A DNA stretch of 64,000 nucleotides from Candidatus Micrarchaeia archaeon (GCA_049966775.1 JBMFTZ010000001.1:21167-85166); one strand, 5' to 3'. Counted from the stretch's first letter, positions 1 through 40,709 are shown. Translations and numbers: made by a program. The notes: generated by a model from the sequence alone, not told the origin.

Positions 1-1098
1 TATTATATTTGAGAGCAAGGACATAAAATCCATCTGCTCGCCTATCGACCTTGAGAAATCTACTATGAACGCGTCGACAATCGTGAAATTGAGGAATGGT
101 ATGAAAGTGAGCCCCGCAAGCAGGTAGCCAAAGATGTCAACGCCACCAGTTAGGCTGCCAACCAGGAATGACGACGGACCAGATCCGGTCACATACGCAA
201 AGAGCAGAGACAGGAGCGCACCAGCCATTGAAGGACCGCTGCATACAGAGCTCGGTATGCACACCGCAATCAGGTTTGTGTCTATAAAACCGTACGTGAT
301 AGTGGTCAAAAGCGGGTATACGAGGCCAAGACCTAGACCGAAGGCAATCATGGCGCCGCCGAACGTCCTAGTGAACCCGAATGTTCGCATCACCAAGCCA
401 AGTGTAAGGAAGACCGATAGGAAGAGCAGCGAGCCCGAGAGTATCAGCAGCTGCAGCTGGCTTATCATAAGCGCAAACATAAGCCCAGAGTAGGCAATCG
501 GGAGCAGGTTGTCGATTTCGCCAGGTAGCAGGGCCACGTTAAAACCTACCGATAGGTATTCGGGGGGCACGTCCGGCAGGGAAGCAGTAATCGATAGGGA
601 GGGCACTATGCCTGCCATGTAGGAAACCACATATGTAAATTCTGCGGCAGTTGATGCCACTCCATTGAAAAGCGAAAGGTCGCACACTGAGAGCTGGTAT
701 ATGTCGCTTGCTCCGGAGCAGCCGCTCTGCAGCGGCAGCTGGTAGCCCAGAATGTCCACCGCATAGCCCTGCGGCACTATGTTAAGCCCCTTCGGCCCGA
801 AGGCGCCCTGCGGGTTTATGAAGAACAGATACGAGAACGCGCCAAACACGAGTATCATCACTATGGACAACACTGCCTCATATATCTGCACGCGCGCCCA
901 CGACTTTGCGCCATCACTTGCTATTACGGTTGCAAGCATATATACGAGCGCAGCCACCAGCATGACCACAAGCACAGCAATGAATGCTATAGGCAGCCAT
1001 GTCAACGGCGTGAACATAAATCCCAGCAGGGGTGCGCTCATGGGGAACGCTGCAAAGAGGCGCGCAAGCGCAAGCATTGCAAATATGGCGATTACCAT
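1..1098 (-). CDS. polytopic membrane protein, tandem-family paralog 5 (C-terminus cut by window edge)
   Basis: I translated the minus strand by hand. ATG at 1096-1098 overlaps the TAA of the upstream gene (TAATG) and the frame stays open for 366 codons to position 1: MVIAIFAMLALARLF...SWARVQIYEAVLSIVMILVF...LVMRTFGFTRTFGGAMIAFGLGLGLVYPLL...DFSRSIGEQMDFMSLLSNII. It carries both family motifs. It is absent from the ORF track only because no stop lies in the window. Confidence 0.75.
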   Translation of the reverse strand, partial: MVIAIFAMLALARLFAAFPMSAPLLGFMFTPLTWLPIAFIAVLVVMLVAALVYMLATVIASDGAKSWARVQIYEAVLSIVMILVFGAFSYLFFINPQGAFGPKGLNIVPQGYAVDILGYQLPLQSGCSGASDIYQLSVCDLSLFNGVASTAAEFTYVVSYMAGIVPSLSITASLPDVPPEYLSVGFNVALLPGEIDNLLPIAYSGLMFALMISQLQLLILSGSLLFLSVFLTLGLVMRTFGFTRTFGGAMIAFGLGLGLVYPLLTTITYGFIDTNLIAVCIPSSVCSGPSMAGALLSLLFAYVTGSGPSSFLVGSLTGGVDIFGYLLAGLTFIPFLNFTIVDAFIVDFSRSIGEQMDFMSLLSNII

Positions 1099-2180
1099 TA
1101 CAACAGCCTCTTAAGGGTCCTAGACGAACTCAGGCTCTGGGCGCCGAGCAGGTCGCCCAGCACCTCCATGAAATTGTACGATATTATGAACGAAAGCACC
1201 ACGCTTATAACGTAGAAAAGCGACGGTTCCATCACGCTGCGTATGAAGCCTATCAAAATCCCTGAGCCCTTGGTGTTGCTCTCCACGATGCTTTGAAGCT
1301 GCGTGAGGGTGCCAGTAACGGAGCTGAAGCTTGATGCGGAAGCGGAGCCGCTCACAAGCGAACTGTATGATGAGCTGCTTGCGACCGGAGCGGATACAGT
1401 AAACGACGAAGTGAATACGTATAACATGAGGGGCAGCACTATGAAGAAACCGACGAACATCCCCAGGAACGCGCCTCCTGCAGCTCTGGTCCACGGGATG
1501 GTGCGCAGCACAATGCCTGCAAAAAAGAACAGCGGGAAGAGCTTGTATACTATCAACAGCACAAACATCGTGGCAAGAAGCAAGCCGAAGAACGCGCCGG
1601 TTATATTGAGCATCATCTTGATCACGCTGTTCACCACGGTAAGCCCGGCCCATGGCGAGAACGCAACGCCAAAGAATACTGGCTGTATCGTGACCTGCAC
1701 TGAAGCCAGGAACGATACCACCATTTCGTTTATGATAAGCTCTATGATAGGCACCACCATGCCAAGCGAGGTGCTGTAGAGCGCCTCGCAGTCGTACATG
1801 TATATGCCGCTTCCGAACGTGCCCTTGCCTATCGCCAGGAAATTACCGGGTGTTGAGACCGAAGTGACCGCAAACGCGCCCAAGAAGACAAATACTATAA
1901 GCAGCGTTATGACCACTTCGCCTATCTCGCTTTTTGCGAACCTGACGAGCTTATCCACTTTTATCGCGTAGCCGATGGCGTAGAGCATGCCTGCTATGAT
2001 GAGCATTATAAGCATCAATATCAGGGATATGGAAAGCAGCGTCGTTACGGAGGTGCCACCGGGCAGCACATTGCCTCCAGTGAAGAGATTGCTGCAGAAG
2101 GCGGCGGCATCTGCGCCAGATATGCTTGGCGCCGCTAACAGAAGCAGGGCAACCAGCAGCAATACGTTTTTGCGCATCAT
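1098..2180 (-). CDS. polytopic membrane protein, tandem-family paralog 4 (signal peptide plus multiple TM helices)
   Basis: 360-aa ORF. N-terminal MMRKNVLLLVALLLLAAPSISG. Motifs KSEIGEVVITLLIVFVF and VLRTIPWTRAAGGAFLGMFVGFFIVLP. Start/stop overlaps with both neighbours. Confidence 0.8.
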   Translation of the reverse strand: MMRKNVLLLVALLLLAAPSISGADAAAFCSNLFTGGNVLPGGTSVTTLLSISLILMLIMLIIAGMLYAIGYAIKVDKLVRFAKSEIGEVVITLLIVFVFLGAFAVTSVSTPGNFLAIGKGTFGSGIYMYDCEALYSTSLGMVVPIIELIINEMVVSFLASVQVTIQPVFFGVAFSPWAGLTVVNSVIKMMLNITGAFFGLLLATMFVLLIVYKLFPLFFFAGIVLRTIPWTRAAGGAFLGMFVGFFIVLPLMLYVFTSSFTVSAPVASSSSYSSLVSGSASASSFSSVTGTLTQLQSIVESNTKGSGILIGFIRSVMEPSLFYVISVVLSFIISYNFMEVLGDLLGAQSLSSSRTLKRLL

Positions 2181-3571
2181 ACCAGCCTCGCCAATCCCGC
2201 AAGCTCAGTGTCGCCTCCGAGCAGTGAGGAGACTCCGAGCACGGCTGACAGTGTAACCATAAGGTTTATGAGCGGCAGGAAATAGGCGGTCACGCCCATT
2301 ATGCCGTAGATCTGAAAGAGCATGTATGTGGCAGGCATCACGCTGCTCGGCGGGCACATCGCGGGCAGGTAGAAATACGGGGCCACGTTGCCGCTTTCTG
2401 CGGCTGAAAGCAAGCCGGCTCCAACGCTGTAGAAAGGTATGAGCAGCACGCCTACGTCTTCGGCCTCGCCTTCTAGTAAGTTGTCACCTGGGGGCATGCA
2501 GCCTAGATGGCCAAGCGCCTGCTGCACGCTTGGCATTGCGAAGAAGTTGAGGGTATATGTGCTTGTCGAGCTGGAAACACTGTTTGAAGGTATGGAGGTT
2601 ACTGTAGAATAGCCGAAGGCTGTGTTGTAGTAGGCGCTGCTGTTTGCAAGGGAAAGATACTCCATCGCGTATATGGCAGGCAGAAAGACGAGGAAACCCA
2701 ATGCAGCTGCAATCAAGAGACCGCCAATCTTCCTTGTAAAGAACACGGAACGGAGCAGCAGCCCGAAGAATATCAGGAACGGCCATACGTCTATCGCTAT
2801 GACGTTAATGGAGAGCTGCGCCACGAACGATTCGACAGCTGTCGTCATCAATGTCCCTAGCGGCGTGAGGAGCCTGTATATCATCGAGTAGCCTGAAAAC
2901 GGGGTAAACTGCACATGCAGCAGGAAATCGGGCACTGAAAGCGTGCCATACAAGGGTATTACGCACGGGCTCACCCACCCGGGGTAGACGCACACGTTAA
3001 CCTGCGGGCTCAGCTTTGAGAGGAAGCCTATCCACGCATCGAACAGAAAAGCGCCGTTGTAGTCTGCTACCGACTGGTTTGTGAGGTTTGCCATTATCAC
3101 GCTCGTGGCAGCAAGCGGATAATCCAGCTGCGCGGTAAGGCTCGGGCTTGAGCCGAGGTTCACCATGCTGCACAGCCCGCTGAAACCTGTAGACGGATTG
3201 CCGCCCAGGTAAGCACCGAGTATGTTGAACGGGTTTGATGTTGTGGATTCGTAGCCGTTTATGTTGTTGCACATTGTGGTTATAGCATTCGAGTTCATAA
3301 GTTTGGTGCTATTGAGGATTGAGATATAGGTGGAAGCTATCACGTACGCGGAGCCAACCACTATGGCTATGAGTATGGCGGTGCCTATGAGCTGGTAGAA
3401 CTCGTTCGTCGCTCCCGCCTTGACCGTGGGGTTGCCAAGGAGCGCGCCTATTATGTACCAAAGCGCTATGAATGCTGAATCGAGCAACAGGGCCATGAGC
3501 ACAAGCGGCATAAGCATGCTTTTCACTGACGTGAATCCGGCATTGAACAGGAACATGCTTATCGGTATCAT
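2177..3571 (-). CDS. polytopic membrane protein, tandem-family paralog 3
   Basis: 464-aa ORF. Motifs TNEFYQLIGTAILIAIV and LLRSVFFTRKIGGLLIAAALGFLVFLP. Ser/Thr/Asn-rich loops between TM blocks. ATGA overlap with the downstream paralog. Confidence 0.8.
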   Translation of the reverse strand: MIPISMFLFNAGFTSVKSMLMPLVLMALLLDSAFIALWYIIGALLGNPTVKAGATNEFYQLIGTAILIAIVVGSAYVIASTYISILNSTKLMNSNAITTMCNNINGYESTTSNPFNILGAYLGGNPSTGFSGLCSMVNLGSSPSLTAQLDYPLAATSVIMANLTNQSVADYNGAFLFDAWIGFLSKLSPQVNVCVYPGWVSPCVIPLYGTLSVPDFLLHVQFTPFSGYSMIYRLLTPLGTLMTTAVESFVAQLSINVIAIDVWPFLIFFGLLLRSVFFTRKIGGLLIAAALGFLVFLPAIYAMEYLSLANSSAYYNTAFGYSTVTSIPSNSVSSSTSTYTLNFFAMPSVQQALGHLGCMPPGDNLLEGEAEDVGVLLIPFYSVGAGLLSAAESGNVAPYFYLPAMCPPSSVMPATYMLFQIYGIMGVTAYFLPLINLMVTLSAVLGVSSLLGGDTELAGLARLV

Positions 3572-3579
3572 TAAGTCAC

Positions 3580-4740
3580 CTACAGATTGCCCCAGAATGT
3601 TGATGCGCCTTCCACGCCGCTGTTCAGGGCCTTTGCAACACCCATCGCAAGCCCCGCCGTGACTCCTATGTTTATCGCAAACATGAATATTCCCACAAAC
3701 ATGAACTTTGAAATCTCCTCTATTATGGTGTTTGTCACATACGGCGCTGTCAAAACGCTTGATGCCAGTGATCCAAGCTCTGCCAGGGGATTGAGACTTA
3801 TGCCGGCGCTGCTCACGAACGACTGCAAGTAAGATGGAGCAGTGCTCGGGTTGCCCGCTACGAGGCTGCTCGAAGGAAGCTCGGCAAAGAACGCGCTTGG
3901 CGAATAGGGCGTGAAGGTGTAAGCGTATGAAAGGTACTTGTATGAGGGGTTGTTTGCCGAAAATATCCAGCTCACCGCGTAACCGTCAAACCCCACCATG
4001 AGCGGGTATACGAGATACGCCGCTATCGCTATGGCAAGAAACGCGTTTGCGGTGTTCCTGAGGTTGCCGCCAACAAACGAGAGGGAGCGCATCACCAGCG
4101 CCACGGGAAGCACCACTATGAACGCGGTGTACTCAAGCAGAGGCAGCATCACCCACTGCAGGTAGAGGGCGCCGATCGTGGTTATGAGAACCATCGCGAA
4201 AACAGACATGTACACGTCGCTTAGTATCTTGAACACCTTGCCAAGGTTCATTCTCGTAGCGAACGAGACTGACAGGCCATTAAATTTTGCCGCAAACGCG
4301 AGCGGGTTATAGCCGTTTAGTATACTGCCGTACGACACCTCGAATATTGTGCTCTCTATGCTGTATTCAACTGACGTGAAGTACACCTTTGATAATAGGC
4401 TCAATCCGGAATTCATCGTAAGGTTTCCTATGTAATAATCAGCGAATTGGAACGGGCTGAGCGCCGATCCGGTCACTGTGCTGCTCATCGAAGTGGAGAT
4501 GCTGCAGGCGGCGCTAGCCATGCCGAGCAGCACCATAATTATTACTGCGCTGAGGAGCGCCTGGGTGAGCTCGGTTCTTACTGCGCTCGTCACCTTTCCG
4601 CTGAACCTTGAAGGCAGAATCCTAGAAATCGCAAGTATAAACGCACCTATAAGCAGGCTTACCAGTATTACGAGCAGGTTTATGCTAAGCCAGCTGTTCA
4701 CATATGTGGAGCCGCCCAATATCGCACATGCGTTTATCAT
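3580..4740 (-). CDS. polytopic membrane protein, tandem-family paralog 2 (most divergent motif)
   Basis: 386-aa ORF. Motifs RTELTQALLSAVIIMVL and VMRSLSFVGGNLRNTANAFLAIAIAAYLVYP. 7-8 nt spacers to neighbours. Confidence 0.8.
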   Translation of the reverse strand: MINACAILGGSTYVNSWLSINLLVILVSLLIGAFILAISRILPSRFSGKVTSAVRTELTQALLSAVIIMVLLGMASAACSISTSMSSTVTGSALSPFQFADYYIGNLTMNSGLSLLSKVYFTSVEYSIESTIFEVSYGSILNGYNPLAFAAKFNGLSVSFATRMNLGKVFKILSDVYMSVFAMVLITTIGALYLQWVMLPLLEYTAFIVVLPVALVMRSLSFVGGNLRNTANAFLAIAIAAYLVYPLMVGFDGYAVSWIFSANNPSYKYLSYAYTFTPYSPSAFFAELPSSSLVAGNPSTAPSYLQSFVSSAGISLNPLAELGSLASSVLTAPYVTNTIIEEISKFMFVGIFMFAINIGVTAGLAMGVAKALNSGVEGASTFWGNL

Positions 4741-4747
4741 ACCAACA

Positions 4748-6091
4748 CTACGTAAGCTTCATCTTCCCTATGCCCATCTTGCTCAGGCTCATCGTGCCGC
4801 CCAGCATCCTTGCTATCTGGTTCACCACGGCGAGCCCTATCACCAGGTCGAACACGAACAGGAAGAACTGGATCAGCAGGTAGCTTGTCTGGTTCACCAC
4901 AAAGTTTAGAATGCCCACTATGCTGCTTGACAGGGGCGAAAAAAATCCGGCATTTGAGCCGGCGTTAAACCCGTCTATCATTTGGGTACCGATATTCGGA
5001 TAGCCTTGCACTACCGGATTGCCGCCCATGACGAACGTGAGCAAAAAGCCCCCACGTATAAAATACAGGTCATTTTCGAAATATTGCACGACGTAATTGA
5101 TCAGTTGCCCTAGAAGACCGGGCGCCGGGGGTGCCGAGCTCACTGACACGATTTGCGAAGGCAGTATGCTGGACAGATAGTCGGATATGGGCTGGTTAAA
5201 GCCCACGAGCAGCACTGGATACACAAGCGAGGCGCCTATGCCGAGAGCAATAAACGTGCCGCCGATGCCACGCGTGAAAGGCAGCGCCCTGAGTATAATG
5301 CCGACAGGCAGCAGCCCGCCCAGGCCCAGCAACATGACCACGCCCAAGAAGTCGTACTGGAACTGGAACGCGTAGAGCATTGGGAATATGACAAGGGTGA
5401 ACATGTCCTTTATGAATGAGAACACCGCCGCAGAAGAGAGCGTCTCTATGTAGCTGCTAACGTAAATGTTAGCAAGGGAGCCAAACTGGATTGTCAGTAT
5501 GGGCACCGGCACTGGCGGTATCGGCAGCGGGAACCACGTGCCCAATGATATGCTCTTCAGCGCGGCTATGCCCTGCGACACGCCCATCATGGTAGCAAAG
5601 TCGACATACGACTGCGCAAGCCCGTATGCAAGGTAGCTTGTGGCGCCGTTGCACAGCCCCTGGAGGTTTGTGTTAAGGCTGCCCAATATGGATGATGAAC
5701 CGCTCGTTTGCAGCGACGCACTGTTGCCCACAAGCATGTTTGCTATGGCGCTTGCTATGACAATCGATGAGAACAAGACCACTATTATGATTACGCTTTT
5801 CGAAACTTCCCAGAGCTCCGTCCTATACCAGCCTTTCAGCGGGCCGTAGTTGAGCACCTCTCCAGCCATATAGGAAACCGCTATAAGGAGGAATGAGATG
5901 GCAATGCCGATTGCTGCGAGCCCGATGAACGTGGCGAAAGCTGAAGCGCCAAGAGTCATGCTGCATACGCTCTGCGCCGTGGACATGCCGGCAAGCGCGA
6001 GCAGCAAAAGCAGCATAAGCGGGGCGGCATGGCGCATACTGCGAGAGTAGCGTGCTGCAGCCTGCAAACCGCCCGGCCTTCGCTGCGTCAT
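4748..6091 (-). CDS. polytopic membrane protein, tandem-family paralog 1 (signal peptide)
   Basis: 447-aa ORF. Hydrophobic leader LMLLLLLALAGMSTAQS. Motifs RTELWEVSKSVIIIVVL and ILRALPFTRGIGGTFIALGIGASLVYP. Its start overlaps the stop of the small upstream ORF (ATGA). Confidence 0.8.
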   Translation of the reverse strand: MTQRRPGGLQAAARYSRSMRHAAPLMLLLLLALAGMSTAQSVCSMTLGASAFATFIGLAAIGIAISFLLIAVSYMAGEVLNYGPLKGWYRTELWEVSKSVIIIVVLFSSIVIASAIANMLVGNSASLQTSGSSSILGSLNTNLQGLCNGATSYLAYGLAQSYVDFATMMGVSQGIAALKSISLGTWFPLPIPPVPVPILTIQFGSLANIYVSSYIETLSSAAVFSFIKDMFTLVIFPMLYAFQFQYDFLGVVMLLGLGGLLPVGIILRALPFTRGIGGTFIALGIGASLVYPVLLVGFNQPISDYLSSILPSQIVSVSSAPPAPGLLGQLINYVVQYFENDLYFIRGGFLLTFVMGGNPVVQGYPNIGTQMIDGFNAGSNAGFFSPLSSSIVGILNFVVNQTSYLLIQFFLFVFDLVIGLAVVNQIARMLGGTMSLSKMGIGKMKLT

Positions 6092-6306
6092 GTGATCACT
6101 ACATAATGCAAACGATACGCATCTGCTTCACATATGAATGAAATCGCATCGCCTTGAAACCCTACAATAGATGCAACGGCGCTGCTTGCCTCGGGGCATT
6201 CATCAACAGGCATTCCATACCTATTGGGATGAAGCGCCCTTTCTGCTTTTGGAGGGCGTGCTGCAACAATATCTAGCCCGGATTTGCGCGCGACTGCAAG
6301 TTCCAT
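6088..6306 (-). CDS. small soluble hypothetical protein (72 aa), possibly the first, leaderless gene of the paralog operon
   Basis: In-frame ATG at 6306 inside track ORF 6088..6615: MELAVARKSGLDIVAARPPKAERALHPNRYGMPVDE.... An AT-rich TATA-like box (rc TAAGTATATATTATTG, about 6325-6340) sits about 27 nt upstream. The stop overlaps the start of the next gene. There is no homology support. Confidence 0.4.
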   Translation of the reverse strand: MELAVARKSGLDIVAARPPKAERALHPNRYGMPVDECPEASSAVASIVGFQGDAISFICEADAYRLHYVVIT

Positions 6307-6437
6307 CACATCCCTTTTGTTCTGCAATAATATATACTTATCGCTATTATTATTATCGTTATTTTTGGTTCCTGCGATTGATGTTTTGAAGCCCAGCACG
6401 GAGCGATAAACTTTCGCGGGTACCAAGCAGGAAAGGG

Positions 6438-7160
6438 CTATCGCTTGAGTAGTCTGAAGCGCTTCATGTACATCTCGCTCTGCAGCACCGCAAGGAAGGG
6501 CAGTATGAATAGGGAGTTGAATACGAGCATCGCGTACCTCGAGTAAACGGTGCCCGAAGCTGCTATGAACACAAAATCGAACAGCGTGATAAGCGCGATC
6601 GCAAGAAAGAGCCACAGTATGAAATAGTCGAAGCGCCTGAAGAAGAAGGAGACGCTTGCCCTGAAAGACCTTAGCACCTTGTTGTCATCTATCACAATGG
6701 AAGCGGGCGCGTAGAACACGAACGGCGTAACAACAAGTATTGCCACGCTGGTGATTATGCCTGAATAACCGGTGCCGAAGCTTAGCATGTCAACCAGTAT
6801 TATAACGGCGCTCAGCATCAGCAGCACTATGAAAACCTTGCTCGTATACCTTTCAAGGCCCCGCATTACCTCCCTTGTTATCTTTCTCTGGACGCGGCTG
6901 TGCTTTACTACCACGTTTATCGCAACGATTGCGAAGCTCAGGAAGAGGAGCGAGAAAAACAGCGACACGATTACCACCATGGATGAAAGCATGCTCATGT
7001 TGGAGAAGATGCTGCCGGTGCGCAGGAATATGCCGCCCGCATCATTGTAAGTTGGAAAGGCAGCAAATACAGGTATCAGGAACGCTATTACGAAGGCGAG
7101 CGAAAACGATAGTATTAGCTTTATGTTGCCCGCGTATGTGGACCATGCGTAAGAGAGCAC
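6438..7160 (-). CDS. integral membrane protein (about 6 TM), unknown function, operon partner of the pilin-like gene
   Basis: 240-aa ORF with alternating hydrophobic helices and basic loops (KHSRVQRKITREVMRGLERY, FFFRRFDY). It lies directly downstream of 7247..7627 on the same strand. Confidence 0.7.
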   Translation of the reverse strand: MLSYAWSTYAGNIKLILSFSLAFVIAFLIPVFAAFPTYNDAGGIFLRTGSIFSNMSMLSSMVVIVSLFFSLLFLSFAIVAINVVVKHSRVQRKITREVMRGLERYTSKVFIVLLMLSAVIILVDMLSFGTGYSGIITSVAILVVTPFVFYAPASIVIDDNKVLRSFRASVSFFFRRFDYFILWLFLAIALITLFDFVFIAASGTVYSRYAMLVFNSLFILPFLAVLQSEMYMKRFRLLKR

Positions 7161-7246
7161 ATTGGTTATGCCAGCACCTGCCGCTTTTTGGCTAAGCTAA
7201 ATAATAAGGGAAAGAAAAAGATAAAAGCCTTACATCGTAGCAGTAT

Positions 7247-7627
7247 TTAGGTGGCCTTGCAAGCGCTTGCAATGGAAGCGTTGCCCGTTATGACCTGGAG
7301 TATGTACGGCGCTATGACAGCTATGATCACGCCGATGACGCCGCCGAGGATCATTCCCATGCCGTAGCCCTGCACCTGCCCCTTCGTTTGGCCTGGTATT
7401 ACGTGCGCGCCGGCATAGAGGGCGCCTCCAAGTATTATAAGCACAAGGCCGAGTATGAATATGACGCTGACCACACCGTTATATACGCTGCATATCGCAT
7501 TTACTGCAGTAGTTGAGGATTGCCCATACGCAGCTGAAACAAGGCTCAGCAAAAGCAATAACGACATTGCGGGTCCGAGGATTCCCCTCGCGTTGAATAA
7601 CTTGCCGAACAATAAGCCCGTGTTCAT
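7247..7627 (-). CDS. VirB2/TrbC-like (CedA1/TedC-like) two-helix pilin-type protein
   Basis: 126 aa. Long leader ending LLLLLSLVSAAYG|QSS. It continues NAICSVY, then Gly-rich TM1 (VVSVIFILGLVLIILGGALYAG), a short basic loop (HVIPGQTKGQVQG), Gly-rich TM2 (MGMILGGVIGVIIAVIAPYILQVITG) and a short tail. This matches the architecture, and partly the sequence pattern, of Agrobacterium VirB2 as I recall it (..NNICTF..LAVLGIVAIGISWMFGRASLGLVAGVVGGIVIMFGASFLGKTLTGG). Confidence 0.6.
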   Translation of the reverse strand: MNTGLLFGKLFNARGILGPAMSLLLLLSLVSAAYGQSSTTAVNAICSVYNGVVSVIFILGLVLIILGGALYAGAHVIPGQTKGQVQGYGMGMILGGVIGVIIAVIAPYILQVITGNASIASACKAT

Positions 7628-7643
7628 GAAACCACTTCGCCTC

Positions 7644-7673
7644 TTTATATATACTAAAATACATTTAAATATG
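7644..7673 (-). promoter_or_regulatory. TATA-box region upstream of the pilin-like gene
   Basis: On the minus strand there is GTATATATAAAG (7644-7654) about 22 nt upstream of the ATG, and CATATTTAAATG (7662-7673) further up. Either gives a leaderless or very short-leader mRNA. Confidence 0.4.
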
Positions 7674-7836
7674 TATCGGTCGCACTGCTACGTATAAGCT
7701 GCCGACTTTATATTTTTGGCTCTGCAGCACGCGCATGCCATATGCAGAGCGCTTCACTTATGCGCCCCGGCCCACACATATAAATAGGATAATGTTGTAA
7801 TAAAGTTGCATATCGGGTGTGTAATAGGATGATCCT

Positions 7837-14279: not shown

Positions 14280-15473
14280 TCATACAGAGCATGCGCTGGT
14301 TATTGCCGATATTGAAGTGCCAGTTATAATCGAAAGCACGTACGGCGCCACCATCGCTATGATCACGCCGATGACGCCGCCGAGGATCATTCCCATGCCG
14401 TAGCCGAGCACAGGCCCGCGCTGCTGGCCCGGCAGCACATGACCGCCGGCATAGAGGACGCCGCCGAGGATCATGAGCGTAAGGCCTAGTATGAATATGA
14501 CACTCTCTATTGTGGTGTAAACGGAGCAGATGGCGTTCGTAGCTGCGCCAAGGTTGGCGATCGAGCCTGAGCCAAAGGTGGCCGAACTAGAACCTGAGCC
14601 AGAGCCTGAGCCAGAGCTCGAACCCCCAGTTGGGGGCGTGCCGCCGGAAAACACTGTGGTGGTAGACGTGCTGGTTGATGTTGTAGTGGTGGTGGTAAAT
14701 ATGTATGCTACAACCGCATAGCCGCCAGCCCCGTTAAGCGATCCCGAAACGGTATACGTTCCTGGCGATAAGTCTATGCACTGTGCTGCATAAGTGGTTT
14801 CATACGAATCGCCGCCGTTGTCGTAGAATAACTGGGTGCAACCGGGGGGCACAGTTATGCTCGAGCATTCAAACCAGCCGCATGACAGCGATAACACCAC
14901 GTCTGACGGGTTTGACACCGAGAAGGCCCAGTTGAACGAAGATGTGCCGCCGGACGCCGCGCCGCTCTCCGTAGTGTACGGGACAGACGAGTCAACAGCC
15001 ACGCCGCCGACAGCTATGTCCGAGTGGTCGGAAGCATCACTGCAGACGTTTGACCCCTGATTCCCTGCGCTTGCATAAGTTGAATATGAAGTGGCGTCGG
15101 GCGACCACGTATAGCTCCTTAGCGCGCCGTTGCCATCACCGCCATTGCAGAAGTAATAGTTGGCGCCGCTAGGCAGCGTGTAGCTGGCCGACCTGCTGCC
15201 CGTGGTCCCACCATACCCCACTATTGAAAATACAGATGTAGACGGTGAGCTTGAGCTCGCTGGGCAGCTGTAAGTTGACGAGCAGTAGCTAGAAGGGGCA
15301 GCACAGCCAACATAGCCGCCAACAACGCAGCAGCTTTCATAGCTCGGGCATGTTACGACACAGCCGCTGCCGGGGCATAATATGGTATAAGCGGTGGATG
15401 TATTAGAAACAAGCGAGAGGGCCGCAATGGCAAGCACCACCGATAGCATAATACTACTATAATGCTCGAACAT
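14280..15473 (-). CDS. modular surface protein: N-terminal anchor/signal, Cys-rich head, beta-rich Ser/Thr domain, Thr/Ser/Gly linker, C-terminal VirB2-like two-helix module
   Basis: Track ORF is 14280..15548. The likely start is M26 (ATG at 15473; MFEHYSSIMLSVVLAIAALSLVS). Cys cluster CPGSGCVVTCPSYESCCVVGGYVGCAAPSSYCSSTYSC. Linker TTTTTSTSTSTTTVFSGGTPPTGGSSSGSGSGSGSSS. The C-terminal ~85 aa is closely similar to 7247..7627 (NAICSVY..VIFILGL..LGG.LYAG.HV.PGQ..G...GYGMGMILGGVIGVIIA..APY.L..ITG). Confidence 0.75.
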   Translation of the reverse strand: MFEHYSSIMLSVVLAIAALSLVSNTSTAYTILCPGSGCVVTCPSYESCCVVGGYVGCAAPSSYCSSTYSCPASSSSPSTSVFSIVGYGGTTGSRSASYTLPSGANYYFCNGGDGNGALRSYTWSPDATSYSTYASAGNQGSNVCSDASDHSDIAVGGVAVDSSVPYTTESGAASGGTSSFNWAFSVSNPSDVVLSLSCGWFECSSITVPPGCTQLFYDNGGDSYETTYAAQCIDLSPGTYTVSGSLNGAGGYAVVAYIFTTTTTTSTSTSTTTVFSGGTPPTGGSSSGSGSGSGSSSATFGSGSIANLGAATNAICSVYTTIESVIFILGLTLMILGGVLYAGGHVLPGQQRGPVLGYGMGMILGGVIGVIIAMVAPYVLSIITGTSISAITSACSV

Positions 15474-15570
15474 GCTTCCAGCCTCGCCGAACGCTTTCCG
15501 GCAATATATTAAGCACCGAAAAGATATTAATAATGTGCGCGCATGCATAGGGCACGAGCGCCGTGCGCCT

Positions 15571-16125
15571 TTACGAGAGAGCAGGTGCTATGCCGCACTC
15601 GCCGAGGAACGCCGCATCGCCCTGCATTACGAGCTTGTCTGGCGTTATTATCGTGCTGTTCACGCTGCTGTAGTTTATGAACACGGAAGGCATGCTTTTG
15701 CTCACATTAATGCATTCGCTTACCGGCAGCTGCGTGGAATTGGATGCTTCCCCGAGCGCCTTGGAGCTCGTGAAGCATGCGGTCTGATTGATAACAAAGA
15801 AGTCAATAGTGGAAGCATTCCTGTGGTATTTGGCGCTCGAAACTATGTTCTCCACGATGCTTGTGGCGCAAGGCTCTGTGCTTGCAAACACCGTGCCGTT
15901 ATAGGCGGTCATGTATATCGCTACGCTCTTCGCTGAATGAAAGTTGCTTTCAAATGTGTAGAAGGGCTGCCCCGTGCTTGGATGATAGAAAAAGAGCAGC
16001 AGATCCAGCGCCACGAGCGCCGCTATCGCGTAATATGCAGCAGCATTGCCTTTTTCTGCTTGGCGCGCCGCGGCTCCAGCCTTCACGGCTTTGCCTGCAT
16101 TTCCATTGTTGTTGCTTCTCTGCAT
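15571..16125 (-). CDS. type II membrane-anchored protein with a 4-Cys ectodomain
   Basis: 184 aa. Basic N-terminus, one TM (AAAYYAIAALVALDLLLFFY), then a ~135-aa domain with 4 Cys and several N-x-S/T sites. The domain is homologous to the C-terminal domain of 16132..18189. Confidence 0.7.
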   Translation of the reverse strand: MQRSNNNGNAGKAVKAGAAARQAEKGNAAAYYAIAALVALDLLLFFYHPSTGQPFYTFESNFHSAKSVAIYMTAYNGTVFASTEPCATSIVENIVSSAKYHRNASTIDFFVINQTACFTSSKALGEASNSTQLPVSECINVSKSMPSVFINYSSVNSTIITPDKLVMQGDAAFLGECGIAPALS

Positions 16126-16131
16126 TGCTTT

Positions 16132-18189
16132 TCACCCTAGCAGCTTGCCAAGCGTGCAGCCGCTGCCATACGTCGCATTGCCCTGCGCGGAGAGCATGTT
16201 ACCGTACACGCCTTTGTAAGCGATATAGCTCGGCGAGCCGCTGCCGAGGTGTATTATGGGCGTGCCCGCAGCTAGCAGCTTGTTGAAGCACTGCACTCCC
16301 GAAAGCGATGCGTTGGCAGAAATGCACGAATAGTTCTGCGCTGCGAGTATCGCCACGCTCTTGCCTTCACTCTGCAGCGACTTCTGCAGCGAAGCTGCGC
16401 ACAGAAGCTGAGCCGCATTGAACGAGCCCGAATCGTTGACTATTATGGCAGCGCTGTGCGCGCTGTGGAGCCTGCTCGCAAACATCGAAAATGGTAGGAA
16501 CGCGTTAGCGCTCTGCGCCGCTGCGAACGTCGCATATGTATAGATGAGCACCAGTATGAACAGCACTATGAAAACGATGCTCCACGAGCGCCTCACCCGC
16601 CTGTTTAGCTTTATCTTCTTTCTCTTTTTGAACCTTGCATATGTTAGCGAGTATACGAGCAGCACTATTATTACGCCTATTATGAACGATAGAAGCGCCG
16701 CATATGCTGGCGATGCGGCGATCTTGGCGCTTACCGAACCGGTTGGGCTGTATAGCATGTAGCTTACTATGCCCCCGTCAAAATCCTTTACCAGTGCACC
16801 GAAAGTGAACGGCGTGCCGGAAAATGCGGCTATGCCTTTGCTCACGGCACTCTCGTTGGCAAGCATCGCCTGCAGCGAGGAGCTGCTCACGCCCTGCATG
16901 AGCTCAAGGGCAATGCCCTGCTGCTCCGCGGAGAGCTTTGCAAGCTCTGGTGGCACATGCCTGAAATCCAGCTGGTCCCTTATCGCGGCGACAGATGCGC
17001 TGCTTATGCTGGAGTTGAGCGGAGCGTAGAGCGCGTCAAGCTTCGAATACAGCCCGGTTACGTTAGAGATGCTGGCAAGCAGCTCTGTATTAGCAAGCGC
17101 TATGCTCTGGTTTATGCCCAGCTTCTTTATTGCTGCAAAAGTGGCTACTAGTTTAGACACGCTCTCATTTAGCGTTGCATTGTTTATTCTCGACAGCAGC
17201 GCCTGCGCATTGAAAAGCGTGGAGTTGTATTTTGGCATTGTCGCATTGAGGAAAGCGTCAAAAGCGGCGGTTTCCTTAGCCCTCACTACAGGCGCTATAT
17301 ACGCATATGCGAGGTTTGAGGCGTTTGCGCTGAGCTGCATGATGCTCGCATTGGAAAGCGGCAGCATCGAAAGCTGCTGCACCGTGTTCTGCATGCTTTG
17401 CAGCAAAGTGGAATTGAAAGTGGTGTATTCGCACATTCCTATGTCGACGCAGTACCACGGTTCCTGCGTTGGCGCCAGATAGCTTGGGCACGAAGAAAAG
17501 TTTGAAGCGGAGAAGTTCTGCGGCACTGGAAATATCGGGTTCTGAGGCAGCACCGTTGCTATGTGAGAGATGTTGCTGAGGGCGTTTTTCATTGCGGATA
17601 TGCTCGCATAAGGATCGACAGAAGCGTTGTGAAGAGCATTGTAGAACGCGCTGTAGTTTGCCACGAGGTTGCCGTATTTCGCAGAGAAGTTCATTATGCC
17701 AAGGCCCATTACGCCTGTCGGTCCACCGTAATCGGGGAGCCAGTATGAGCATATCGGCACGGTCTGGCACGAGAAGCAGCCGTTTGTGGCGTTGCACGTA
17801 TAATAGTTAAGCCCTGTTTCTATGCGGCAGTCGTCAAGCGGCGGCGCGGCCTGCGCCTCGTAATTGCTCATTGAAGCATTGAGAGATGCGAGCACTGACT
17901 TGCTCGGCGCATACACACTCAGCACATAAGGCCTAAGCGCCTTGTATATCTGCGTTGCGTTTGTGAGCATTGAGTAGTTGCCATGAGTGGCATTTACGAC
18001 AATGAAAGAGATGCCGTGCTGCATTATCGTGTATGCATTGCCGCCAATGCTTTCATTATGCATCGAATAGGAGCTTATCGTCGAATTGGGCATGTATATA
18101 TGAAGGTACTGCACAAGCGACGCATTGGCGCCCAGTGCGGTAGTTGCGAGGAGTGAAAGCATAATTGCAGCAAGAATTTCAACGCGCAT
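16132..18189 (-). CDS. large sequon-rich surface glycoprotein with two TM helices and a C-terminal 4-Cys domain
   Basis: 685 aa. Signal peptide MRVEILAAIMLSLLATTALGANAS. By my count roughly 25-30 N-x-S/T sequons. TM hairpin around ARFKKRKKIKLNRRVRRS. The C-terminal ~125 aa resemble 15571..16125. Confidence 0.8.
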   Translation of the reverse strand: MRVEILAAIMLSLLATTALGANASLVQYLHIYMPNSTISSYSMHNESIGGNAYTIMQHGISFIVVNATHGNYSMLTNATQIYKALRPYVLSVYAPSKSVLASLNASMSNYEAQAAPPLDDCRIETGLNYYTCNATNGCFSCQTVPICSYWLPDYGGPTGVMGLGIMNFSAKYGNLVANYSAFYNALHNASVDPYASISAMKNALSNISHIATVLPQNPIFPVPQNFSASNFSSCPSYLAPTQEPWYCVDIGMCEYTTFNSTLLQSMQNTVQQLSMLPLSNASIMQLSANASNLAYAYIAPVVRAKETAAFDAFLNATMPKYNSTLFNAQALLSRINNATLNESVSKLVATFAAIKKLGINQSIALANTELLASISNVTGLYSKLDALYAPLNSSISSASVAAIRDQLDFRHVPPELAKLSAEQQGIALELMQGVSSSSLQAMLANESAVSKGIAAFSGTPFTFGALVKDFDGGIVSYMLYSPTGSVSAKIAASPAYAALLSFIIGVIIVLLVYSLTYARFKKRKKIKLNRRVRRSWSIVFIVLFILVLIYTYATFAAAQSANAFLPFSMFASRLHSAHSAAIIVNDSGSFNAAQLLCAASLQKSLQSEGKSVAILAAQNYSCISANASLSGVQCFNKLLAAGTPIIHLGSGSPSYIAYKGVYGNMLSAQGNATYGSGCTLGKLLG

Positions 18190-18223
18190 GTGGTCGCCCT
18201 TTCCATATATTATTGAGTAGAAA

Positions 18224-18233
18224 TATTTAAATA
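18224..18233 (-). promoter_or_regulatory. TATA box (palindromic TATTTAAATA) for 16132..18189
   Basis: TATTTAAATA lies about 40 nt upstream of the ATG at 18189. Confidence 0.5.
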
Positions 18234-18344
18234 CGTGTTGCCAAAAGGCGACGATAAAAATCCGTATTTAAGGAAGAAGCGCGGGCATAGATTCAAGAGA
18301 AGGCTCGGCAACAAATAGGCATTGAGGATTGAAAACAGAATCAA

Positions 18345-18395
18345 AAAGGATCAGAAAAACCTAAAAGAGAAAGAAAAAAGAAAGAAAGAAAGGCA
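18345..18395 (-). terminator. oligo-T-rich terminator region after the S-layer-like gene
   Basis: The plus strand is a purine tract (aaaagagaaagaaaaaagaaagaaagaaagg). On the minus strand this gives several T-runs immediately 3' of the stop at 18403, which is the archaeal intrinsic-termination style. Confidence 0.45.
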
Positions 18396-18402
18396 AGCAG
18401 GT

Positions 18403-21400
18403 TTAGCTGCTTGCTGCCTTTGCATATAGCTGCTGTATGAATGCGTTTGCCGCTGCGGTTGTCTGGTTGGCGTAGTAGCCCGCTATCAGTATGCGGTTTG
18501 TTCCATACGCCTGGTCTATCTGCGTTGTGGGCGTCATTGAGATGTTGTATGCCTTCTGCAGCTGTGCGCTCAGCGTGTTGACGTAGCCGCTTCCCACCAG
18601 TATCAGGTTGCTCGCCGGGTTTGCCTGTGAATCAAGCACTACTAGCGGGCTTGTTGGCAAGCTGCTCAGCAATACTGGCTGGTCTGACGTGCTGACTGAC
18701 GGAGTTGCCGTTATGTTGCTTATGCCCGATATGGAGTAGTGCGATGCCTGAATGCCCGATGCTGTTATGTTGGCTATGCTTACGTTCGGTAGGTTTGTTG
18801 CTTCACCTATAGTGTAGCCTGGGCCTGATGTTGGGTATATCTTGTAGCTCTTTGTTATTGTGGTTGTTGATGGACCTGCCGCGAACTGGAGCATGTCTAC
18901 GCTCTTCGCAAGGTTCAGTGTTACTGCTGTTGTGCCAATCGATGCCACTTCGCTGCCGCGCTCTGTTATGAAGCCCTGAGGCACATTGAATGGGCTGTTG
19001 TAAGTGTATCCTGAAGGCGTGTATGTGACGTTGTTAGAGAGCGATGACGGTGTTCCTGAAGGCGCTGTTGCATTGAGGTAGTACAGAGGCGTTGCAGAAA
19101 TGCCTCCCGTAGAGTTGGTTATGCCCACTGTTAGTGTGTCTGGCGCCGAGTTTACTCCTGGTACGGGATATTCTGGTATAGAGTAAGTGAAGTACTCATT
19201 CCTTACTCCTGGCGTTGACACGCTTGTTGGTGCCAAAGTGAATGTCTGCTGAAGCTGCCCGGGCTGCTGGTATGTAACGCTTGATCCTGAAGTGAGCAGG
19301 TCATAATTCTTTCCTGCCTGGGTGTACATTATTTCTGGTGATGAGTATGGAGACAGTGTTGCAAGAGTTAAGTAGTTGCCTGACGTGGGTGCGTTTGATG
19401 ATGTATATTCACCAGCGGATAATCCATTCACGTTTATCACATCCATAACATTGGCTGTGAACCCTGGATTTGGCACTGCTGCATGAGAGCTGAGGTACAT
19501 GTTTATGTTTGTGACGTTGTTGAATGGGGCCGACACTGGCAGATAGTAATAATAGTCACCAGCTGGGCTGGCCGTATCGAATGTTGCTGTTTGTGTTGTC
19601 AGGGAGTTTTGCGTTGTGTACCCTGTTACTGCCACAGTAAGTGGGTATGTGCTGGATACAAAGCTGTTTGCTGGCGCGGCTGACACTACTTCTACCACAA
19701 TGGCGTTCGCGCCGGATAGCGAGCTTGATATATAATTTGCAGTTTCTGTAAGCTCATACGGGTTAAGGTTGTATGTTAGCGTTGAGGTTCCTGCTCCTGC
19801 CACCGTGAATGCGTTTGGTATCTGGCTTGTCACTGTGAAGAGGTTTGCCGGCTCTGTTATTGCTGTGTCGTTTACTCCGTAGCTTGAACTACTGCCTGCA
19901 AGGTTCTGGTATGTCACGCTGCTTTGTGTTGAAGTCGCAAGCTGCAGTGCGTCGAAGTCAGTAGATCCCGGGCTTAATGTCTGGCCTAGGAATGTGAGCT
20001 TCCATACCGCTGGGCTTGTCATGAGCTCCATGCTATGGTCTGGAAGTAGAGTCTGGGAGTTTGCGCTTGTGCCATATATTGTTATGCCCTGAAGCTCGTT
20101 TGCAGAGCCACTGCTGGTTGCGTTTGTTGTCCACTGAAGCTGCACGTCGTAGTTGGGGTTTGCGCTGTTGAATGCACTGCCGCTTGAAAGGTTTACTATG
20201 TTGGAGAACAGCTGTATGCGCGCCCACCTCTGGTACGAATACAAACCTGCGAATGTCTGACCCACTTTCACATAAAGCGTGTGGCCGCTGACATTGAACT
20301 CAGTTGTGTTGAACCTTCCTATTGATGTCTCGTTTGTCAGTACTCCGTTGTAGTAAACGCCTATTGCCGCTGGTGTTCCGCTAGGATAGCTAAGGTCCTG
20401 CAGCTTGACCGTGAAGTTGCCTGCCGATATAGAGTGGCTTACATTTACGATTGTTGACGGTGTCATCGCTTGCGCCAGTGAGATTTTGCCTCCTGTGACG
20501 AAATTGCCTGAATTGACGGTTATAGATGGCGGACTAAAGTTGTATGTGGTATAGTTTGCGCCTAAAAGACTGAAGGCCTGGTTTGTGGGCGCGTTGCTTG
20601 TCTTCACATTTATTGGGGAACCGAATATTACCTGGTATGCGAGGTTGGCGTCAACCAGCGCAAGGCTCTTTGCATTTTGGTCGTATACTGGGAATCCTGT
20701 AACCCAAAGGCTTTCTGTTTCACTTGTTGGGCCGCTGCTTGATAGAAGTCCTGCTGGCGCTACTTTGAGTATGTTGTCATATGCTGGGTTGGTGCCCGAT
20801 GAAAATGACGAGAACGCAACGCCACCTCCGTTCTGTGTTGCAGTAACGCTAGTTGCAAGCGGAACGCCTATGTTCACGTAGGGGCTTTCTGCTGTATATG
20901 GTGACGACGCAACTATTGAATATTGCTCAGGATAAACGTATGGGCTGCTAGAACCCTGCAAGGACTTTGTTGAAGTGGCTGCACCTGGATTCTGCGGTAC
21001 TGCTCCGTTGAGCACCGAGCCTATCAGCGCGCTGAAGCCGTATGTTCCGCTTGATATCGCGGTTCCTGACTCGTTGAGCCAAACCTGCGGGTTTACAAGC
21101 GCGTGGCTTGACGAATTCGACACTGACACAACGTGCAGCACGCTTGCCGCCTGTGTCGCATTGACACTCGCGGTTACAGGCACGCTAGTGAATGCAAGGT
21201 TGCCTATCGCAGCTGCGATGTTTGCCGCTGCAACGCCGTCGCTTGGCTTGGCAGCGCTTCCCACAACGATCTGCACCTGTGGCGCTCCTGCGTTGCTTAT
21301 TATTGGCACGTTCTGGAATGTTACAGGGCTTGCGAACGCAAGGCCGAGTCCTAACAATGCCGCGCCTGCTGTTATCGCGGCTATCTTCTTTGCATTTATG

Positions 21401-21408
21401 CTATTCAC
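18403..21408 (-). CDS. S-layer-like surface protein
   Basis: 1001 aa, GTG start with AGGTGA 5 nt upstream. Signal peptide AAITAGAALLGLGLAFA. N-terminal QIVVGSAAKPSDGVAAANIAAAIGNLAF and C-terminal NLILVGSGYVNTL...RILIAGYYANQTTAAANAFI resemble archaeal S-layer N/C-terminal domains. Very Ser/Thr/Asn-rich with many sequons. Strong TATA. Confidence 0.7.
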   Translation of the reverse strand: MNSINAKKIAAITAGAALLGLGLAFASPVTFQNVPIISNAGAPQVQIVVGSAAKPSDGVAAANIAAAIGNLAFTSVPVTASVNATQAASVLHVVSVSNSSSHALVNPQVWLNESGTAISSGTYGFSALIGSVLNGAVPQNPGAATSTKSLQGSSSPYVYPEQYSIVASSPYTAESPYVNIGVPLATSVTATQNGGGVAFSSFSSGTNPAYDNILKVAPAGLLSSSGPTSETESLWVTGFPVYDQNAKSLALVDANLAYQVIFGSPINVKTSNAPTNQAFSLLGANYTTYNFSPPSITVNSGNFVTGGKISLAQAMTPSTIVNVSHSISAGNFTVKLQDLSYPSGTPAAIGVYYNGVLTNETSIGRFNTTEFNVSGHTLYVKVGQTFAGLYSYQRWARIQLFSNIVNLSSGSAFNSANPNYDVQLQWTTNATSSGSANELQGITIYGTSANSQTLLPDHSMELMTSPAVWKLTFLGQTLSPGSTDFDALQLATSTQSSVTYQNLAGSSSSYGVNDTAITEPANLFTVTSQIPNAFTVAGAGTSTLTYNLNPYELTETANYISSSLSGANAIVVEVVSAAPANSFVSSTYPLTVAVTGYTTQNSLTTQTATFDTASPAGDYYYYLPVSAPFNNVTNINMYLSSHAAVPNPGFTANVMDVINVNGLSAGEYTSSNAPTSGNYLTLATLSPYSSPEIMYTQAGKNYDLLTSGSSVTYQQPGQLQQTFTLAPTSVSTPGVRNEYFTYSIPEYPVPGVNSAPDTLTVGITNSTGGISATPLYYLNATAPSGTPSSLSNNVTYTPSGYTYNSPFNVPQGFITERGSEVASIGTTAVTLNLAKSVDMLQFAAGPSTTTITKSYKIYPTSGPGYTIGEATNLPNVSIANITASGIQASHYSISGISNITATPSVSTSDQPVLLSSLPTSPLVVLDSQANPASNLILVGSGYVNTLSAQLQKAYNISMTPTTQIDQAYGTNRILIAGYYANQTTAAANAFIQQLYAKAASS

Positions 21409-24717: not shown

Positions 24718-24773
24718 ATACTTTTCTGGTCATATTTAGCTGATTCTCAAAGTTGTGCGGATGTGTGCTTTCA

Positions 24774-37782: not shown

Positions 37783-38139
37783 ATGAAAACAGGCACGCGC
37801 TTTGAGGACCGTAGCGCAGCAAAGGCCAGAAGCGCATCAAAGAATATAAGGCGGGCCGCAAAGATGCAGAGGCTTCTGGAGCGCATCGCGTACTATTCAA
37901 TCTTTATAGACTTTGGGATAACCATAGTCACGCTGATATCAATAAACGAGCACATAAGCCTGCATTCGATAACGCTGCTTCTGAACATCATGCTTTCCGC
38001 AGTTGTAATAGTGTCGATGGTGCTCTTCGCGATAATCTTCTTCCTCTCGCACTATGATAAGATCATAGACAGGTTTGCCCTTAGATATGCAAATAACACC
38101 GGCTCCAAAAAAGAACGACGGCGGGGAAGGCGCATCTAA
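37783..38139 (+). CDS. small two-TM hypothetical protein with basic termini
   Basis: 118-aa ORF with two hydrophobic helices. No homology recognised. Confidence 0.4.
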   Translation: MKTGTRFEDRSAAKARSASKNIRRAAKMQRLLERIAYYSIFIDFGITIVTLISINEHISLHSITLLLNIMLSAVVIVSMVLFAIIFFLSHYDKIIDRFALRYANNTGSKKERRRGRRI

Positions 38140-38157
38140 ATAGCATGCAGAAGTTTC

Positions 38158-40683: not shown

Positions 40684-40709
40684 CTACAGCATAGTTCACG
40701 CCGGACAAG

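Follow-up and report, generated by a model that had tools for sequence, protein, structure and literature searches.

The window analysed here is a stretch of 64,000 nucleotides (nt) of Candidatus Micrarchaeia archaeon (GCA_049966775.1 JBMFTZ010000001.1:21167-85166). The minus strand of its positions 1..7627, where the open reading frames (ORFs) were read directly from the sequence, is occupied by one tightly packed operon. This operon encodes a pilin-like protein, a membrane protein named m213 and five members (P1 to P5) of a family of homologous membrane proteins that forms the subject of this study. The features are the following (aa, amino acids; TM, transmembrane):

7628..7836, no strand: intergenic region separating the operon from the divergent gene of threonyl-tRNA synthetase, as read from the sequence
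7247..7627, minus strand: VirB2/TrbC-like pilin precursor of 126 aa, a two-helix protein and the first gene of the operon
6438..7160, minus strand: m213, a membrane protein of 240 aa (about 245 aa for the family) and about six TM segments, always found between the pilin and P1
6088..6306, minus strand: putative soluble ORF of 72 aa, a reading of the sequence, whose stop overlaps the annotated start of P1 (ATGA)
4748..6091, minus strand: paralog P1, 447 aa, with a signal peptide, five TM segments and a Lys-rich C-tail
3580..4740, minus strand: paralog P2, 386 aa, separated from P1 by a 7-nt spacer
2177..3571, minus strand: paralog P3, 464 aa, separated from P2 by an 8-nt spacer
1098..2180, minus strand: paralog P4, 360 aa, with a 4-nt overlap with P3 (ATGA)
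1..1101, minus strand: paralog P5, at least 367 aa, with a GTG start and a 4-nt overlap with the stop of P4; its 3' end lies beyond the window edge

Consecutive genes from P1 to P5 thus have either a gap of 7-8 nt or a 4-nt overlap between them. At NCBI, P1 and P4 have identical counterparts, ACP5UH_00130 and ACP5UH_00115, respectively, two hypothetical proteins of a Candidatus Micrarchaeia metagenome-assembled genome. The frame of P5 (1101..1) remains open for 367 codons and leaves the window; its truncation corresponds to the window edge and not to decay.

The operon was compared with 64 related loci (L001 to L064), among which L001 is syntenic and about 70% identical. A scan based on P1 with one genome per species gave 58 loci, which represent a biased sample and not a survey of the whole phylum. 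The comparisons of the six genes were done on the 40 loci where P1 to P6 are intact, and the residue counts on the window plus these 40 loci (41 genomes). The labels of the 58 loci are nearly all Micrarchaeota, and the few others look like mis-binning or differences of naming. One complete copy of the operon is filed as 'Candidatus Acidiferrales bacterium' (L032, DATLRT010000039.1) and one protein of the D family described below as 'Methanothrix sp.' (P0371); both probably come from mis-binned Micrarchaeota contigs.

In more than 40 loci the gene order is conserved and consists of one or more pilin-like proteins, m213, P1 to P6, two proteins named D1 and D2, an ATPase and two small proteins. 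P6, D1, D2 and the ATPase are localized outside the window, beyond position 1. D1 is present on the window's own contig as ACP5UH_00100 (recovered as P0345), and between its locus tag and that of P5 (00110) there is room for just one gene, 00105. The presence of P6 in the genome of the window is implied by this gap of one gene in the tags ACP5UH_00105 to 00130. In L001, P6 (16031-17293) is a sixth, more divergent paralog that contains both motifs of the family.

The six paralogs, each with its characteristic size, are found in the same order in 40 of the 40 Micrarchaeota loci with intact flanks. No position is lost in any sampled genome where enough flanking sequence is available. Among these 40 loci, the best match of a paralog in another genome is the paralog of the same position in 99.9-100% of 9,359 comparisons. 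The median identity between orthologs of these species-level genomes is 32-41%, against about 28% between paralogs. The array is therefore an ancient fixed set of six paralogs and not a recent amplification. A previous reading of this DNA, made from the sequence alone (hereafter the sequence-only reading), had described a five-fold tandem family. The homology of the five copies holds, whereas the number has to be corrected to six, the last member being localized past the window start. The term tandem amplification, if understood as an expansion that is lineage-specific or still ongoing, has to be abandoned, since each position has its own orthologs and the order is constant in every sampled genome. 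The variable loops, rich in Ser, Thr and Asn, could evoke a recent or ongoing amplification under diversifying selection on the surface, for antigenic or host-range variation. We consider this explanation as extremely improbable. The copy number is constant, an identity of 20-25% between paralogs is far too low for a recent event, and the orthology by position across 40 species-level genomes, with the ortholog and paralog identities given above, already refutes it.

The ten motif strings quoted in the sequence-only reading were all recovered verbatim in the five window copies, which share the two motifs as it had indicated. The pairwise identity among these five proteins is 20-25% and their pairwise BLASTP matches are weak (E-values from 7e-5 to 1.4 for a database size of 1e8). 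In contrast, hidden Markov models (HMMs) of the orthologs of a single position reach the other positions with median E-values of 1e-6 to 1e-14 (Z=1e6), and zero matches to these HMMs were obtained with shuffled sequences. The similarity of the motifs hence survives the alignment, and the homology of the six paralogs is real but old. The outlier is P2, the most divergent position, which is joined to the family only via the HMM of P1.

From the alignment of 245 sequences covering all six positions, we observe that Arg268 and Pro292 are invariant and that Arg274 is conserved in 95% of sequences (numbering of P1). Glu92 is conserved in all positions except P5. Gly264, Gly277 and Gly278 are conserved in all positions except P2, whose second cytoplasmic loop is six residues longer and devoid of the GG pair. 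The residues specific to P2 are conserved in the P2 of all 41 genomes. The copy 3580..4740 had been considered as degenerate; because the loss of the G..GG residues is common to all 41 copies of P2, it is instead a conserved and specialised paralog. The family comprises 2,897 representative clusters at 50% identity (E<=1e-3). Neither Pfam nor NCBIfam gave a match for the five window copies, and Pfam was also blank for 80 relatives; the NCBIfam matches of the window paralogs at E<1 are unrelated families at chance level. The paralogs constitute a homologous and polytopic family without a name in Pfam or NCBIfam, and no transporter family of these two databases was matched. The proposal of an unnamed membrane family is supported.

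The paralogs are predicted to have an external N-terminus, five TM segments, a large loop between TM2 and TM3 and a cytoplasmic C-terminus. This topology is based on hydropathy, on the helices of the AlphaFold2 (AF2) model of P1 (predicted local distance difference test, pLDDT, 66; predicted template-modelling score, pTM, 0.63), on the charge bias and on the distribution of sequons. P1 would successively contain a signal peptide, TM1, the cytoplasmic loop 1 (KGWYRTELWE), TM2, the extracellular region 1, TM3, the cytoplasmic loop 2 (LRALPFTRGIGG), TM4, the extracellular region 2, TM5 and the Lys-rich C-tail. A signal peptide is predicted in the paralogs with the exception of P2 and P3, and the short external N-terminus preceding TM1 carries a conserved Cys. 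The sequence-only reading had left the topology to be predicted; hydropathy, AF2 helices and charge bias yielded the five-TM model, in which its two motifs are cytoplasmic loops. The first corresponds to the conserved Glu at the end of the basic cytoplasmic loop between TM1 and TM2. The second is a cytoplasmic loop of nine residues, R-x5-R, followed by GG entering TM4 and prolonged up to the invariant Pro. The C-tail after TM5 is basic and predicted to be cytoplasmic. Of 63 Lys and Arg residues, 46 are found in the 1001 aa predicted as non-extracellular versus 17 in the 1023 extracellular aa. Seven of the eight N-glycosylation sequons are in the predicted external regions, where Ser, Thr and Asn represent 26% of residues. 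P3 has the longest extracellular regions of the paralogs and four N-x-S/T sequons therein. TTYH2, the best match of the P1 model with Foldseek (E=0.17), and heliorhodopsin were discarded as noise.

Because the closest orthologs of the window paralogs are only about 70% identical, the synonymous sites are saturated, and the conservation of amino acids by region was taken in place of the ratio of nonsynonymous to synonymous substitutions (dN/dS). The maxima of conservation are the cytoplasmic loops, TM4 and the C-tail. Identity to the 40 orthologs reaches 70% for the cytoplasmic loop 2, 59% for TM4 and 56% for the C-tail; the corresponding values for the external regions 1 and 2 are 30% and 23%, respectively. 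The conserved core with variable exposed loops that had been proposed is thus found again. The lengths follow the same partition: the TM segments and cytoplasmic loops are nearly fixed, with hardly any variation in TM3, TM4 and the cytoplasmic loop 2, and the external regions vary from 41 to 241 aa. Expanded relatives contain 200-900 additional aa with immunoglobulin (Ig)-like (Ig_3), PKD or SprB repeats. The extended paralog differs by lineage and is P1, P2, P5 or P6. Such N-terminally extended paralogs are found at:

L038, 14843-17359
L031, 15124-18837
L058, 11048-13498
L048, 2140-4797
L035, 4070-6451

As these extensions are always N-terminal to the core, they support the external position of the N-terminus.

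The genomic context of the array, which was absent from the sequence-only reading, resembles that of a type IV secretion system (T4SS) or of a Ced system, and this resemblance is carried by three independent components, the pilin, the ATPase and D1. The pilin is made of a long leader and two hydrophobic helices separated by a basic loop, and the mature protein has one conserved Cys close to each of its ends. The window pilin aligns over its full length with the Pfam family T4SS_pilin (E=0.62, a weak match), and its ortholog in L001 matches TrbC/VirB2 with an E-value of 0.0016. Among the 58 pilins, TrbC/VirB2 is matched by 25 (best E-value 8e-6) and T4SS_pilin by 13 (best 1e-6); no further family comes back to a similar extent. 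All 58 sequences (the window copy and 57 orthologs) carry the Cys pair, one residue about 10 positions before the first hydrophobic helix and the other at or near the C-terminus. VirB2/TrbC pilins cyclise head-to-tail. By analogy, a disulfide between both ends of the Micrarchaeota pilin could be the functional counterpart of this cyclisation. Some loci (L023 2193-8275, L030 847-6765, L040 563-7376 and L050 1730-8113) also contain, upstream of the pilin, one to four proteins of 500-1280 aa; there are none in the window. In most cases the match to the pilin profile covers roughly the last 100 residues, and in a few it extends over a longer stretch. These proteins may combine adhesin-like domains with a membrane hairpin of VirB2 type.

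The protein m213 is present at its position in 59 of the 64 loci. Its mean column identity of 49% exceeds that of any paralog and of every other membrane protein of the operon. No Pfam family was found for it, and its hhalign comparisons with VirB6 and with the paralogs were negative. An alternative is that the paralogs are derived from the pilin and are not relatives of VirB6. A VirB2-like hairpin (leader, Cys, TM1, basic loop, TM2) would have been extended at its C-terminus, the paralogs would act as pilus base, minor or tip subunits or assembly platform, and m213 would be the true channel. The best alignment between the pilin and paralog profiles indeed covers exactly TM1, the loop and TM2 (hmmsearch E-value of about 1e-3 in a tiny database; hhalign E=0.02). 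A similar relation has been reported for CedA with CedA1 and for VirB6 with VirB2 (PMC9905601), and m213 is better conserved than the paralogs. Nevertheless, the similarity of pilin and paralogs is not significant (hhalign probability 2.4%) and m213 has no detectable relation to VirB6. Moreover, since VirB6 and CedA are related to their own pilins in this way too, even such an origin would not really exclude a VirB6-like role. We consider this scenario as improbable.

D1 and D2 are paralogous proteins of 277 aa (L001 17334-19004) composed of an N-terminal hairpin of two TM segments and a cytoplasmic domain of about 210 aa. In the Ced system, the function of VirB4 is divided between CedB and CedD; their N-terminal domains are similar to distinct parts of the VirB4 N-terminal domain, one part for each protein (PMC11868833). 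Because CedB and CedD share out this domain, D1 and D2 were predicted to be VirB4 N-terminal modules before any modelling. The AF2 model of D1 from the window's own genome (alignment of 61 sequences, pLDDT 78) was then compared with the PDB using Foldseek. The top eight matches are all TrwK/VirB4 of R388 (E-values from 7e-3 to 0.17, probability 0.51-1.00), and nothing else is comparable among the matches. The cytoplasmic domain of D1 and D2 may thus be a detached N-terminal module of VirB4; the structural matches are supportive, not conclusive. A platform of the TadB/C type was also considered for D1 and D2 and rejected, a lone Spore_III_AB (GspF-like) match having been obtained in just one of 52 members.

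The ATPase gene being outside the window, the ATPase was analysed from its ortholog in L001. It is a soluble protein of about 505 aa without N-terminal domain or TM segment. Three Pfam families are matched above their cut-offs: DUF87/HerA-central (60 bits), AAA_10 (48 bits) and P-loop_TraG (33 bits). The best NCBIfam models are CedD (8e-20), CedB (4e-17) and VirB4-like CD1110 (2.5e-16), all below threshold; for the equivalogs CedD and CedB, the scores are 71 bits against a cut-off of 600 and 62 against 700, respectively. The ATPase aligns with the VirB4 C-terminal domain 4ag5 (residues 59-327, that is the whole NTPase domain), and its matches in the PDB include HerA. As judged from sequence comparison, it is an ATPase of CedB/CedD/VirB4/HerA type, belonging to the VirB4/CedB clade of the FtsK-HerA superfamily. 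Together with D1 and D2, it would behave as a VirB4 split into three genes. In L001 the ATPase gene is followed (20550-21285) by the genes of a soluble protein of 102 aa and of a protein of 140 aa with a CxxC zinc-ribbon and TM segments.

The G+C content of the operon is the same as that of its surroundings, its neighbours are housekeeping genes (threonyl- and seryl-tRNA synthetases, ThrRS and SerRS, and the release factor aRF1), and neither integrase nor relaxase was seen there. For these reasons, the cluster is a domesticated chromosomal system and not a mobile element. According to another possibility, the paralogs are an ordinary solute transporter, or another membrane family, placed merely beside a HerA-type ATPase and without T4SS-like function. 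The paralogs have no demonstrable homology to any membrane component of T4SS, as such a reading would expect. However, no transporter family of Pfam or NCBIfam was matched, the paralogs invariably accompany the pilin, D1, D2 and the ATPase across more than 40 genomes, and an architecture of five TM segments with two large external regions is not that of a transporter. This possibility appears very unlikely.

In T4SS and in the Ced and Ted systems, VirB6, CedA and TedA are encoded between the pilin and VirB4, and the N-terminal hairpin of CedA and of VirB6 resembles the cognate pilin, CedA1 and VirB2, respectively (PMC9905601). We hold with moderate confidence that P1 to P6 are channel subunits in the position of VirB6, CedA and TedA within a Ced/Ted-like chromosomal apparatus derived from T4SS, probably as a hetero-oligomer. 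We infer the channel role, the stoichiometry and the substrate as follows. P1 to P6, probably in one copy each, would assemble in the cytoplasmic membrane into a channel or platform that is hetero-oligomeric and pseudo-symmetric, and the overlapping or tightly spaced genes would provide equal amounts of the subunits. The cytoplasmic loops (the Glu of loop 1 and R-x5-R-x2-GG of loop 2) and the basic C-tails would dock the ATPase ring anchored by D1 and D2. The variable and glycosylatable external regions, together with the N-termini, would line the pilus base or support it, and touch the S-layer or the partner cell. Like Ced and Ted, the machine would serve the transfer of DNA or other macromolecules from cell to cell, the symbiont being one of the partners.

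The paralogs share several traits with the VirB6/TrbL family (PF04610; VirB6 of A. tumefaciens, TrwI of R388). VirB6 of A. tumefaciens has an external N-terminus, five TM segments, a large external loop after TM2 and a cytoplasmic C-terminus (PMC6120205), which is the topology predicted here. Both are polytopic proteins of the cytoplasmic membrane encoded with a VirB2 pilin and VirB4. The Micrarchaeota paralogs differ by six distinct genes instead of one, by signal peptides, by a second large external region and by cytoplasmic motifs of their own (the Glu and R-x5-R-x2-GG-x13-P). Ced (Sulfolobales) and Ted (Thermoproteales) are, like this operon, chromosomal archaeal derivatives of T4SS without relaxase or outer-membrane complex. 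They combine a VirB2-like pilin (CedA1, TedC) with a multi-TM channel protein (CedA, CedE, TedA), their ATPases being CedB, CedD and TedB. Ced has paralogous VirB6-like channel proteins, CedA and CedE (PMC11868833), and a VirB4 N-terminal domain distributed over two proteins, and the ATPase of the operon scores best against CedD and CedB. Unlike Ced, the operon has six paralogs at the channel position and not one or two, and its putative counterparts of the VirB4 N-terminal domain are separate genes (D1, D2) not fused to the ATPases. It differs from both Ced and Ted by its host, a DPANN archaeon and not a member of the Thermoproteota, and by an ATPase far below the equivalog cut-offs.

Several observations weigh against the assignment of the paralogs to this position. 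PF04610 (TrbL/VirB6) is matched at E<1 by none of the 80 family members and none of the five window copies. The paralog profile finds no match among the PDB sequences, TrwI/VirB6 included, and no T4SS chain is present in the best 50 of the 92 Foldseek matches of the P1 model, a model of moderate quality, in the PDB. With hhalign, the paralogs and VirB6 give a probability of 0.1% and an E-value of 0.46. The VirB6 alignment used was narrow (VirB6 of pTiC58 and 28 relatives, 29 sequences of Agrobacterium type, Neff 3.5), and the control comparison of the pilin family with the single sequence of A. tumefaciens VirB2 failed too. Neither relaxase, coupling protein nor VirB8 was seen. Only D1 is confirmed on the contig of the window, while P6, D2 and the ATPase are deduced from syntenic loci with 70-85% identity and from the gap in the locus tags. 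As for the other components, the match of the window's own pilin is weak, and m213 (6438..7160) could be the true VirB6 analogue in place of the paralogs. The match of D1 with VirB4 is only structural, with modest E-values, TM-scores of 0.28-0.30 and an aligned region of VirB4 that was not reported; the searches with the D1/D2 family, and with the D1 profile against the PDB sequences, gave it no support at the sequence level. Finally, none of the five window paralogs matches an NCBIfam model of a Ced or T4SS component at E<1. According to the literature, however, the components of Ced and Ted have no recognisable sequence similarity even to each other. Given this divergence, the negative results obtained with VirB6 lower the probability that the paralogs are VirB6 more than the probability that they work like VirB6.

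The closest analogue of the paralog array is the series virB6a-e of the Rickettsiales rvh system. In this system four to five virB6 genes, five in Rickettsia and about 80% diverged, are in tandem beside virB3-virB4 (PMC2653234). Both arrays have a conserved order and are found in genome-reduced, host-dependent lineages, and the N-terminal extensions of the Micrarchaeota paralogs recall the large and variable extensions of the Rickettsiales proteins. In contrast to the Micrarchaeota family, the latter contain a bona fide TrbL/VirB6 domain, function in a Gram-negative T4SS and result from an independent duplication in bacteria.

For the VirB6 paralogs of Rickettsia, separate homo-oligomers have been proposed (PMC2653234). 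Transposed to the Micrarchaeota, each paralog would form its own homo-oligomeric channel or receptor in a T4SS-like system, giving six alternative conduits or partner specificities. Besides this precedent, such a model would account for the external regions that differ strongly between paralogs and between species, and for the Ig and PKD extensions carried by different positions in different lineages. It agrees poorly with the retention of every position in every sampled genome and with the single ATPase and two D proteins serving six paralogs. The invariant order and the tight or overlapping genes rather fit an equimolar co-expression. In addition, P2 and P5 are each devoid of their own subset of the residues shared across the family, as expected for non-equivalent subunits of one complex. 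We judge separate homo-oligomers as rather unlikely and retain the hetero-oligomeric channel.

The association of six paralogs, two D proteins and one ATPase would fit a hexameric motor, which is here a conjecture. More precisely, a hetero-hexameric ring with one of each paralog could sit on a hexameric split-VirB4 motor (six ATPase subunits and three D1-D2 pairs). It would be a host-connection complex universal in Micrarchaeota and the archaeal counterpart of the T4SS involved in the episymbiosis of Patescibacteria; in this detailed form the proposal is improbable. The T4SS of Patescibacteria (CPR) is essential for epibiotic growth in one case (PMC12102498). It resembles the present operon in being of the minimal monoderm type (VirB4, VirB6, VirB3 and a VirB2-like pilin) and kept in ultra-small episymbionts, and differs from it in being bacterial, in having a VirB6 recognised by standard HMMs and in lacking an array of six paralogs. 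Cryo-electron tomography of ARM-1, a cultivated Micrarchaeon, has revealed thin pili as well as a barrel of 21 nm to which intercellular nanotubes dock (PMC11329633). The cluster described here would be a candidate for this barrel or for the thin pili.

DPANN archaea need contact with a host cell. The T4SS-derived apparatus is present in all 58 species-level Micrarchaeota genomes obtained by the search based on P1. It is kept despite genome reduction and is localized beside housekeeping genes, which together make the cluster a concrete candidate for the connecting machinery. Full-text searches of the literature gave no account of this cluster or of this family in Micrarchaeota or in DPANN. The apparatus would bring the DPANN into the Ced/Ted class of conjugation-like systems of archaea and provide a VirB4 split into three genes. 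The Micrarchaeota would also be, after the Rickettsiales, a second independent host-dependent lineage with a fixed array of several paralogs at the VirB6 position.

Concerning the remaining details of the operon, the intergenic region 7628..7836 contains a TATA-like box (tatataaa), rich in A+T and located 16 nt before the ATG of the pilin, and is, from this reading, the putative promoter of the operon. The alignment of orthologs suggests that P1 may start at M19 (6037) instead of 6091. The spacer between m213 and P1 is of 346 nt in the window against 54 nt in L001. It includes the putative ORF of 72 aa (6306..6088), which is also preceded by a TATA-like box. No homolog of this ORF was detected in the 64 related loci with phmmer and tblastn, and no Pfam family was matched; among the compared loci it is specific to the genome of the window.

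The window also encodes ThrRS with an editing domain of archaeal type, aRF1, an S-layer protein and AglB. The region 14280..21408 (minus strand) contains a protein of 1001 aa similar to S-layer proteins (S_layer_C), followed by proteins of 685, 184 and 422 aa without Pfam family, and AglB/STT3 is found at 24753..27482. The segment 38000..42000 has a low G+C content (0.42-0.45 versus about 0.52). It contains an ORF of 160 aa (38081..38563, minus strand) reduced to the N-terminal helix-turn-helix of an IS605 OrfB/TnpB transposase, likely a remnant of an insertion sequence, and a tRNA-Arg is localized nearby (40709..40783). Finally, a sequence of 112 nt at 63330..63441 (minus strand), missed by ARAGORN, is recognised as a tRNA by Rfam (54.7 bits) and is probably an archaeal tRNA containing an intron.

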